Shown here: one piece after another, positions 2,165 through 4,345 of the stretch
Position numbering within the stretch: the stretch's first letter is position 1
Layout of the letters: every line of letters starts with the position of its first letter
Origin: a virus
Taxonomy: Duplodnaviria > Heunggongvirae > Uroviricota > Caudoviricetes
Direction: 5' to 3' (one strand)
Length of the DNA: 4,345 nucleotides
IMG/VR virus record: IMGVR_UViG_2740892487_000004
Made by a program: the position numbers and the translations under genes
Notes under the pieces: model-generated
What the model was told of the DNA's origin: nothing
Databases searched by the model: none
What the model saw: only the letters and a program-made list of their open reading frames with translations

Positions 2165-2329
2165 TATAATAAACTTACTTTTTTATCATTTTTCCACTTT
2201 AACAACATTTTGCTCCACTTTTCCACGACCAAACAACTTGAAATCTGGTTAAAATAACACGCAACACTATTCTTCTTCCTTGAGTCCGCCCGGAACTCGA
2301 AAAACAAACCGAGTTAAAGCCATTTTTCA

Positions 2330-2343
2330 CAAAATCGATTTTG
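2330..2343. promoter_or_regulatory. Perfect 14-bp palindrome CAAAATCGATTTTG inside a roughly 26-bp imperfect dyad, about 140 bp upstream of the recombinase gene; candidate protein-binding site
   Basis: Direct reading of 2323-2350: TTTTTCACAAAATCGATTTTGGGTCTCA. Function is inferred only from position and symmetry. Confidence 0.25.
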
Positions 2344-2480
2344 GGTCTCACCAAAATTACGGGGTTGCATACGCATTCGTTTATTTTCGAACGTGTACAT
2401 AAAAATATGCACAAAAATAATCAAAATTATTTTCTGAGATGCATTATGATATGAACACCAATTTCGTATAGAGTCTCACT

Positions 2481-3071
2481 ATGTCTCGAATTTTTGCTTA
2501 CTGTCGGATATCAACGCTGGATCAGACCACCGAAAATCAACGCCGGGAAATCGAAAGTGCAGGTTTTAAAATCAAACCTCAGCAAATAATCGAAGAACAC
2601 ATTAGCGGCTCAGCAGCAACCAGTGAGCGTCCTGGTTTTAACCGGTTGCTTGCTCGCCTGAAATGTGGTGATCAATTGATTGTGACAAAACTGGATCGCC
2701 TTGGTTGTAATGCAATGGATATCAGGAAAACAGTGGAACAACTGACCGAAACAGGTATCAGAGTGCATTGCTTAGCATTGGGGGGCATTGACCTGACCAG
2801 TCCAACAGGAAAAATGATGATGCAAGTAATTTCAGCAGTCGCTGAATTTGAACGAGACCTTTTACTTGAACGCACTCATTCCGGGATAGTAAGAGCCCGG
2901 GGCGCAGGGAAACGTTTTGGTCGACCACCTGTGTTAAATGAAGAACAGAAACAGGTGGTATTCGAACGAATTAAGTCAGGTGTAAGTATAAGTGCCATTG
3001 CCCGGGAATTCAAAACCTCGCGGCAAACCATTTTAAGAGCCAAAGCAAAACTTCAGACACCTGACATATAA
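2481..3071 (+). CDS. pinQ: Serine recombinase of the resolvase/invertase family, PinQ/PinR-like (196 aa)
   Basis: Full ORF. The N-terminus [20 protein letters not shown] carries the catalytic-serine motif R-I-S-T-x-D-Q. GRPP at residues 147-150 and a C-terminal helix-turn-helix ([18 protein letters not shown]) are typical of the Gin/Hin/resolvase family. Length and context match E. coli PinQ/PinR as recalled. The Shine-Dalgarno sequence is weak (GAG 2471-2473). Confidence 0.9.
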
Positions 3072-3168
3072 AAAATAATCTCGGTGTGAGATGCTTTACG
3101 TCTTCCAAGCCACCTTCCTTGCCGTAAATGGAAAGATACATCTAATTATAGAATTTATATGTTTTACC

Positions 3169-3744
3169 CTACGGCAGTGCTGGCCATTCAATATCCTGTG
3201 CAGTTGACGTATCAACACGGTTCAGCAATACCCGATACTTTTTCCATGCTTCCAGCAACGAGATTTCTTCCTCCGTTGCAATTTCCAGATCTGCAGCATC
3301 CTGAAGCGGCGCAATATGCTCACTGGCTACCTGCATCAGGCTGTTTTTTGTTTCTTCCGCCTCCCGGATCCGGAACAGTTTTTCTGCTTCCGTATCCTTC
3401 ACCCAGGCTGTGCCGTTCCACTTCTGATATTCCCCTCCCGGCGATAACCAGGTAACATTTTCCGGTAACGGACCGAGTTCAGAAATAAATAACGCGTCGC
3501 CGGAAGCCACGTCATAAACCGTTTTACCCCGATGATCTTCAACGAGATGCCACGATGCCTCATCACTGTTGAAAACAGCCACGAAGCCTGCCGGAATATC
3601 TGGCGGTGCAATATCGATACTGTTTGCTGGCAGACCTGTATGAGGCGGAATATATGCGTCACCTTCACCAATAAATTCATTAGTTCCGGCCAGCAGATTA
3701 TAAATTTTTATGGTCCGTGGTTGTTCACTCATTCTGAATGCCAT
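3169..3744 (-). CDS. tfaQ: Phage tail fibre assembly protein (Tfa chaperone, 191 aa)
   Basis: Full [52 protein letters not shown]..., recognised as the TfaQ/TfaR/TfaE family. Its ATG (3744..3742) overlaps the stop of the upstream tail fibre ORF (TAATG), consistent with translational coupling. Confidence 0.9.
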
Positions 3745-4134: not shown

Positions 4135-4345
4135 GGCTTTGTTGAATAAATCGAACTTTTGCTGAGTTGAAGGATCAGATCACGTATCTTCCCGACAACG
4201 CAGACCGTTCCGTGGCAAAGCAAAAGTTCAAAATCACCAACTGGCCCACCTACAATAAAGCCCTCATCAACCGTGCTCCATAACTTTCTGGCTGGATGAT
4301 GAAGCTATTCAGCCTGGTATGAGTCAGCAACACCTTCTTCACGAG
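4135..4345 (+). mobile_element. IS903-like insertion sequence, partial copy B, inverted relative to copy A; runs off window end
   Basis: 4135-4153 is GGCTTTGTTGAATAAATCG. GTG at 4212 opens [21 protein letters not shown], then the frame breaks at TAA 4279-4281: copy B lacks one base relative to copy A in GGAGC-CACGG and another in CAGG-CCTGG. Confidence 0.85.

Follow-up and report, generated by a model that had tools for sequence, protein, structure and literature searches.

The 4345-bp stretch analysed here (IMG/VR record IMGVR_UViG_2740892487_000004, hereafter the window) makes up the ydfJ-proximal end of Qin, a cryptic prophage of Escherichia coli, and its recombinase gene pinQ is carried on an 834-bp Tn3-family element at 2281–3114, arranged as inverted repeat (IR), spacer, res, tnpR (pinQ) and IR. 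In the spacer of this element lies a perfect 14-bp palindrome for which an original prediction had offered three roles: a crossover site for the adjacent recombinase, an autoregulatory site, or a vestige of one. We consider it very probable that the palindrome belongs to the fossil cassette and is not a crossover site. To the fuller reading, in which it is a recombinase-type dyad of that cassette, weakly bindable by a dimer of PinQ, PinR or another Pin-type enzyme, we give a probability of about one half; the palindrome is at most an extra or relic dyad of this type, and the reading that chiefly competes with ours is a palindrome that arose by chance and is not bound.

The left inverted repeat (IRL) of the element (2281–2319, + strand; TGAGTCCGCCCGGAACTCGAAAAACAAACCGAGTTAAAG) is degenerate and identical at 29 of 38 positions to the IRL of L112 (GGGGTCCGCTTGGAATTCGGAAAATAAACCACGTTAAG), with an alignment score reached by 0 of 2000 shuffles. 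The right inverted repeat (IRR; 3080–3114, – strand), likewise degenerate and with a tip 3 bp short, aligns with the IRR of L112 and L030, again at a score that 0 of 2000 shuffles reached. L112 and L114 are complete metagenomic mini-elements of 852 bp, in which a 38-bp IR (GGGGTCCGCTTGGAATTCGGAAAATAAACCACGTTAAG) is followed by a spacer of 62 bp, then by res and tnpR, and a second 38-bp IR closes the element; tnpA is absent. The alignment of the window element with them runs from one end to the other; its IR-proximal spacer between IRL and the first res subsite (2320–2367), inside which the palindrome falls, aligns with their 62-bp spacer. The IR tips in the window are degenerate, reading TGAG on one side and GGTG with 3 bp missing on the other, and each is abutted by TTCCT (2276–2280 beside IRL and 3115–3119 beside IRR, no strand), a candidate target-site duplication. 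A 5-bp target duplication is typical of the Tn3 family. In L197, a divergent E. coli copy whose protein is 85% identical, TTCCT is kept beside a more canonical tip ending in CCCCCC, and the IRR has a GGGGGG tip. The duplication stays a candidate because no unoccupied site was found: searches of 5426 E. coli genomes and of 50,697 phage records, with the joined flanks and with the tfa-side flank alone, gave no empty insertion site, and phages without pin have only the coding part of tfa in common with the tfa-side flank.

pinQ is the sole gene between the IRs, and the element has no transposase gene. Reading the minus-strand open reading frames upstream of the palindrome gave no similarity to a TnpA N-terminus that could mark a tnpA remnant. 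A divergent tnpA is present in the relatives L013, L016, L019, L030 and L118. No plasmid relatives closer to the E. coli left end were found beyond copies of the E. coli chromosomal type, and plasmid annotation holds no transposase entry at the place of the relic that would name the parent transposon. The element resembles the non-autonomous members of the Tn3 family, which have family-type IRs around a short transposase-less segment and are mobilised in trans; it differs from them, like L112 and L114, in carrying a resolvase gene and res. With its degenerate IR tips the E. coli copy is probably immobile. The same cassette lies between tfa and the int/att region in the functional lambdoid phages mEp460, 2H10 and Tritos, and a non-autonomous Tn3-family element would have inserted between ydfK and tfa of an ancestral lambdoid phage.

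The region upstream of pinQ can be read against that of its relatives. Between the divergent tnpA and the resolvase gene, all of them have an array that consists of a 26-bp dyad (TGTMCGAAA-N8-TTTCGKACA), a 14-bp gap and a 32-bp dyad (TGTMCGAAA-N14-TTTCGKAYA), and continues with a TATAAT or TATGAT box and two TTCGTACA repeats just 5′ of the ATG; judged by sequence, the array is built like a Tn3-type res and comprises its subsites I, II and III. A half-site matrix was built from 44 orthologous half-sites, which themselves score 6.1–18.1 bits. In the window, the homologue of subsite I, the crossover site of the family, is CATACGCATTCG TT TATTTTCGAACG at 2368–2393, aligned with the orthologues column for column in the multiple alignment and with L112 pairwise; its right half scores 7.15 bits, within the training range, and its left half is decayed. 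Subsite II (2408–2439; TGCACAAAA-N14-TTTCTGAGA) aligns with the orthologous TGTCCGAAA-N14-TTTCGKAYA and is separated from subsite I by the same 14-bp gap as in the orthologues, and both of its halves are decayed (3.5 and 1.1 bits). Subsite III (2449–2470; ATATGAACA...TTTCGTATA) overlaps the conserved TATGAT/TATAAT box at 2445–2450, lies in a stretch nearly identical to plasmid and metagenome orthologues, and has as its right half the best family half-site of the region (TATACGAAATT, 2460–2470, – strand, 10.98 bits). Since only the right halves of subsites III and I fall within the training range, the array is homologous but largely decayed. The general premise that resolvase genes are commonly preceded by their own res sites is thus borne out for pinQ by orthologue comparison, whereas the description of the surroundings as an otherwise unstructured AT-rich spacer is not: G+C content is 33.5%, yet the spacer contains a transposon IR and a res-like array. 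Set beside Tn3-family res sites of the Tn3/gamma-delta type, where subsites I, II and III lie between tnpA and tnpR, the pinQ array is homologous to the three-subsite res of a resolvase clade 60–85% identical to PinQ, has the same order and gaps and overlaps the recombinase promoter; it differs in that the E. coli subsites are largely decayed. Elsewhere in the family, Erwinia oleae (L017:1268–2652) has two divergent pinQ-like resolvase genes around one subsite I with mirrored subsites II and III, forming a symmetric double res.

The palindrome itself, CAAAATCGATTTTG at 2330–2343, is its own reverse complement, and it lies 138–151 bp upstream of the pinQ ATG at 2481, in agreement with the predicted distance of about 140 bp. 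Its symmetry centre is at 2336|2337, and in the 26-bp frame at 2324–2349 (no strand), read in a 12-2-12 arrangement as TTTTCACAAAAT CG ATTTTGGGTCTC, 8 of 13 positions are paired; the imperfect 26-bp dyad first described holds in this frame, though the string quoted for it (2323–2350) is 28 nt long. Palindromes of this length or longer appeared in 27% of dinucleotide-preserving shuffles of the whole window and in 3.1% of those of the 316-bp ydfK–pinQ spacer; in shuffles of the element's 200-bp non-coding part the same length was found in 2.4%. The palindrome is therefore unremarkable as the best of the whole window and mildly unusual for its spacer. A third half-site-like copy, TCACCAAAAT, can be read at 2348–2357 (+ strand); with 2338–2344 it forms a second 7-bp inverted repeat (ATTTTGG-N6-CCAAAAT, 2338–2357) whose left arm is common with the palindrome, and 2327–2357 as a whole gives three copies of a C(A/C)CAAAAT-like motif. 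An RNA fold using the 2338–2344/2348–2357 pairing was no more stable than shuffles (z = –0.23), no Rfam or tRNA match was found at the palindrome, and no terminator-like site was found within 1850–2600.

Multiple and pairwise alignments agree in placing 2368–2393 on subsite I and the palindrome in the IR-proximal spacer, where it corresponds to none of the three subsites known from Tn3 and gamma-delta but sits between IR and subsite I. The palindrome is not the crossover site, because its centre is 44 bp upstream of that of subsite I, and the junctions seen in nature point the same way. At least 5000 plasmid records (mostly from Escherichia and Klebsiella) have a match, and many carry IRL, spacer and the left half of subsite I; in the closest plasmid matches among those listed, homology to L112 stops with element position 112, where that left half has its last base. 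Natural recombinants in relatives thus break at the centre of subsite I, which, together with the position of the orthologous subsite, speaks against a crossover at the palindrome. The term vestige is fair for the whole res array; the palindrome itself aligns with the spacer and with no subsite. Both plasmid records examined individually are of IncF type, and in one of them (L194) the relic adjoins pemK; the stretches concerned are L112:575–800, L194:2501–2621 and L195:2501–2662. Two other placements were tried and abandoned. The palindrome as a subsite I with a 4-bp central deletion (CAAAATCG[NNCG]ATTTTG) was ruled out, as 2368–2393 is the better candidate and has the correct 8-bp spacing and 14-bp gap, and a subsite I split by a 19-bp insertion, suggested by the pairwise alignment to L030, was dropped in favour of the L112-type left end, whose alignment spans both spacer and IR.

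Relatives and alleles give some view of how the palindrome arose. Across the palindrome region the spacer is identical, without gaps, at 24 of 34 positions (counted manually) to the IncF-plasmid relic L194, where the homologous stretch reads CCAAATAACGTTTGG and forms a dyad with 5-bp arms. The corresponding stretches of L112 (GTCAAATAACTTTCAGG) and L114 (GCCAAAGGGCTTTCAGG) form weak dyads, and L195 has none. From this variation among relatives it follows that the CAAA/TTTG arms are ancestral and that only in the E. coli lineage is the palindrome perfect. The spacer of L112 and L194 also holds a conserved hairpin (CGCCAGAATGGCG / CACCAGAATGGTG) with compensatory changes, to which the third half-site-like copy at 2348–2357 aligns; in the window the hairpin is decayed (2349–2364). 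Within the lineage we compared 34 spacer haplotypes, among which a second allele, B, is about 12% different over 2165–2454. Most members of allele B read AAAAATCGATTTTT at the palindrome, with a symmetric C..G to A..T change and one outer pair gained; we estimate the chance of a compensatory pair among four substitutions at about 0.08, which is suggestive, not significant. The left half of subsite I in allele B is CATCCGAAT, nearer to the consensus. No recombinant break at 2336/2337 was found among the 34 haplotypes. Mosaicism is seen at the start of pinQ (2165–2480 compared with L127, L134, L148 and L197), where the spacers of allele B are about 12% divergent as far as 2454 and are followed by an identical gene; in L197 the pattern is reversed, with a spacer 99% identical and gene and IRR about 90% identical, and both boundaries lie near subsite III and the ATG (2454–2480). 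Comparison across Qin and Rac homologues, proposed originally as a check on the palindrome, can say little: the same palindrome sequence is indeed present upstream of pinR in Rac (K-12 positions 1,433,812–1,433,825, with the Qin copy at 1,633,471–1,633,484), but the two prophages have a module in common that starts at about 1385, extends to pinQ and hardly differs between them, and conservation between them is for that reason uninformative.

The adjacent gene is a serine recombinase, as had been assumed. pinQ (2481–3071, + strand) encodes a small enzyme with Pfam Resolvase and HTH_7 domains that belongs to a TnpR (resolvase) clade, and its best relatives of solved structure are Gin (E = 3e-29) and gamma-delta/Tn3 resolvase (E = 2e-22). 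Relatives with 60–85% amino acid identity occur in Shewanella, Photorhabdus, Erwinia, Mycoavidus, Oxalobacteraceae, Rhodobacteraceae, many enterobacterial plasmids and metagenomes, and several of them have a divergent Tn3-family transposase gene upstream (Pfam DDE_Tnp_Tn3, DUF4158). At the position of R71 of gamma-delta/Tn3 resolvase, which matches an arginine of Gin, PinQ has Cys76 (TGT, 2706–2708; KLDRLGC versus KLDRLGR). This cysteine is found in 164 of 164 complete phage and prophage copies, L197 included, whereas all 10 of the aligned orthologues have arginine. In Tn3 resolvase, the R71A and R71K mutants still bind DNA but no longer recombine it, and their cleavage is down about 1000-fold (PMC2794168). 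Between PinQ and its orthologues the recognition helix is conserved. The gene is still under some constraint: polymorphic sites in pinQ are synonymous in 17 cases and non-synonymous in 10, and the ratio of non-synonymous to synonymous substitution rates (dN/dS) is 0.39 within the phage lineage as against 0.16 in comparison with a plasmid tnpR. In the only functional study (PMC12529663), the e14 P segment is reported to invert more at pix when PinQ is overproduced and to be locked in a pinE mutant; inversions are found in e14 only and not in Qin or Rac, and no site beside pinQ is described. The fixed Cys76 sits uneasily with the published claim that PinQ itself inverts e14 DNA.

The half-sites had been said to loosely resemble those of hix and gix, which raises the question of an invertase crossover site at which Pin-family enzymes would invert or delete DNA together with a partner site. 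As in the hix, gix, cix and pix sites of Hin, Gin, Cin and Pin, for which the pix sites of e14 served as the test case, the dyad spans 26 bp in a 12-2-12 arrangement, and a TTxTCxxAAA core keeps the same register to the central dinucleotide; its 9-bp cores stand 6 bp apart, an invertase-type geometry unlike the 8 bp of the family's subsite I. Compared in register with the e14 pix sites of K-12 (TTCTCCCAAACC AA CGTTTATGAAAA and TTCTCCCAAACC AA GGTTTTCGAGAG), the left half TTTTCACAAAAT agrees with the outer pix half-site TTTTCATAAACG at 9 of 12 positions and the right half at 6 of 12, making the palindrome the best pix-like 26-mer of the spacer (per-position chance 0.001–0.003); the resemblance to the invertase half-site TTxTCxxAAACC stops short of its inner CC and of the AA centre of pix, which are replaced by AT and CG. 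The reported rise in e14 pix inversion on PinQ overproduction (PMC12529663) would fit such a site as well. Unlike the known invertase sites, however, the palindrome is single-copy and has no invertible segment. The check for a second copy came out negative: there is none in the 45.9-kb intact phage mEp460, where the next best 26-mer has 9 mismatches in 26, and a search of 5426 E. coli genomes gave 3349 occurrences of the 42-mer that surrounds the palindrome as against 3371 of the whole spacer, so that the 42-mer is confined to the pin-upstream context. No other pix-like half-site in the window rose above chance, the CG centre means that exchange with the AA of pix would leave mismatches, the inversions of PMC12529663 were found in e14 and not in Qin or Rac, and PinQ lacks the R71-equivalent arginine; its orthologues, moreover, are transposon resolvases with accessory sites rather than enhancer-dependent invertases such as Hin, Gin, Cin and Pin. 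We regard an invertase crossover site as extremely unlikely. A site for a host factor (integration host factor (IHF), Fis or H-NS) beside the IR, either inherited from the transposon end, where transposase binding is aided by such factors, or now nucleating H-NS silencing of prophage DNA, strikes us as very unlikely too. Wiater and Grindley (1988) reportedly placed IHF sites directly inside the gamma-delta IRs. Consensus matches for CRP, IHF, Fis and H-NS at the palindrome, all judged by eye and without a matrix score, are weak: AATCGATTTTGTG (– strand) shares 7 of the 9 specified positions of the IHF consensus WATCAANNNNTTR, a count that rises to 8 in allele B, and AATCGATT agrees with the H-NS motif TCGATAAATT at 6 of 10. 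An HNS entry stands in the row for the ydfK–pinQ spacer in a table of PMC3946193; on the other hand, by eye, the homologous places of L112, L114, L194 and L195 show no IHF-like consensus, and a host factor is required by none of the data.

A further reading concerns control of the pinQ promoter. In a functional operator or accessory site, catalytically disabled PinQ and PinR would act as regulators, with the palindrome and the remnants of subsites I–III controlling their own promoter. A consensus scan gave a candidate sigma-70 promoter, TGTACA-16-AATAAT, at 2394–2421 (+ strand), and the same hexamers are listed for the ydfK–pinQ and ynaE–pinR spacers, which are bound by RNA polymerase in vitro (PMC3946193). 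pinQ and pinR transcripts are induced 14-fold upon T2 infection (PMC12529663), and the promoter is therefore regulated. The invariant Cys76, present even in the copy whose protein is 15% divergent, the conserved recognition helix, the mostly synonymous polymorphism and a spacing to subsite I of about four helical turns, equal to that between subsites I and II, all fit such a role. Against it, the one promoter with experimental support has its –35 hexamer 51–64 bp downstream of the palindrome, which is thus not a classical operator, whereas subsites II and III overlap the promoter region; the palindrome matches the family binding motif poorly, and the dN/dS of 0.39 within the phage lineage is relaxed. 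The autoregulatory role foreseen in the original prediction accordingly finds little room, with no overlap or adjacency to the promoter hexamers and a 51-bp gap to the –35, and we hold an operator or accessory function to be unlikely. A wider version, in which PinQ and PinR would be domesticated TnpR resolvases, deprived of the R71-equivalent arginine, rather than Pin-type invertases, kept by lambdoid phages as DNA-binding proteins, with palindrome and res remnants as an operator array and with the e14 stimulation explained by pix-like binding that modulates PinE and not by catalysis, seems to us decidedly unlikely. It is, by comparison, quite possible, if short of our expectation, that the palindrome arose by chance in the AT-rich spacer of a relic and has neither binding nor function, its half-site likeness following from A-tract and T-tract composition. 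Much of what supports chance also weighs against a bindable dyad. More than a quarter of shuffled windows hold a palindrome of at least 14 bp, and the perfect form is unconserved at the homologous place in related elements. At position 2343, in the outermost pair, G, T, A and C all occur, and some haplotypes are asymmetric (A..G, A..A). Half-site scores on the family matrix are negative: the better half, AGACCCAAAAT, reaches –1.04 bits and the other falls outside the top 20 (lowest –2.3), mainly because the G of CCGAAA, conserved in 90% of the training half-sites, is missing; in register, only 5 and 4 of 12 positions are identical to the halves of the family's subsite I. The 6 bp between its cores matches neither the 8 bp of subsite I nor the 14 bp of subsite II in Tn3-type res, and we know of no Tn3-family element for which a fourth resolvase site between IR and res has been described. 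Chance would also be in keeping with the decayed res array and with the relaxed selection on the gene in the phage lineage (0.39 versus 0.16), and by our own estimate the inner 12 bp would be kept between alleles about 12% divergent some 21% of the time. Chance is less comfortable with the finding that a palindrome of this kind turned up in just 3% of shuffled spacers, that, on independent grounds, its halves make the most pix-like 26-mer of the spacer and do so in register, that L194 has a dyad at the corresponding place, and that in most allele B haplotypes symmetry is kept by a double change from C..G to A..T.

The reading that we favour, a weakly bindable recombinase-type dyad of the fossil cassette, also draws on position: the 44-bp distance to the centre of subsite I (the I–II distance, counted from coordinates, is 43 bp) and the 24–26-bp geometry would be compatible with a res accessory subsite, poor as the half-site match is. 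A weak ancestral A3/T3 dyad in the spacer may have become a perfect palindrome in the E. coli lineage. The TTxTCxCAAA core in its 12-2-12 arrangement could then allow weak binding by a dimer of PinQ, PinR or another Pin-type enzyme, as an extra site of accessory type, and any present role would be architectural or regulatory, exerted on the pinQ promoter region. Strand exchange at the palindrome is not expected, because the res half-sites are decayed and PinQ is without the catalytic arginine.

Around the cassette, the window contains a ydfJ fragment, ynfT (1749–1862), ydfK (1931–2164), pinQ, tfaQ (3169–3744, – strand) and a truncated stfQ. The stretch from the ydfJ fragment to the truncated stfQ is bracketed by IS903B copies at 1–712 and 4137–4345, in inverted orientation, giving it the appearance of a composite transposon; most E. 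coli genomes have neither or one of these copies. Inside tfaQ, the Rfam family IS009 has a full-length match at 3203–3401 (– strand) of 221 bits against a gathering score of 117. Direct repeats (TTTTCCAC / CCACTTT) occupy 2190–2226, in phage DNA between the ydfK stop and IRL and outside the transposon-derived cassette.

Taken alone, the palindrome is of little weight; it is its context that alters the reading of pinQ and pinR. Annotated and named as Pin-like invertases, the two are, on this comparison with their relatives, resolvase genes of a dead Tn3-family mini-transposon with a decayed res upstream. A 2025 paper (PMC12529663) describes PinQ as an invertase that is active and works on e14 in trans, and the cysteine at the R71 position calls DNA cutting by PinQ into question. 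Candidate binding sites for PinQ are the remnants of res subsites I–III, the palindrome of its own cassette and the pix sites of e14. Finally, the comparison puts on record that mini-elements of resolvase plus res (IR-res-tnpR-IR) form a mobile unit and have made their way into phage genomes.

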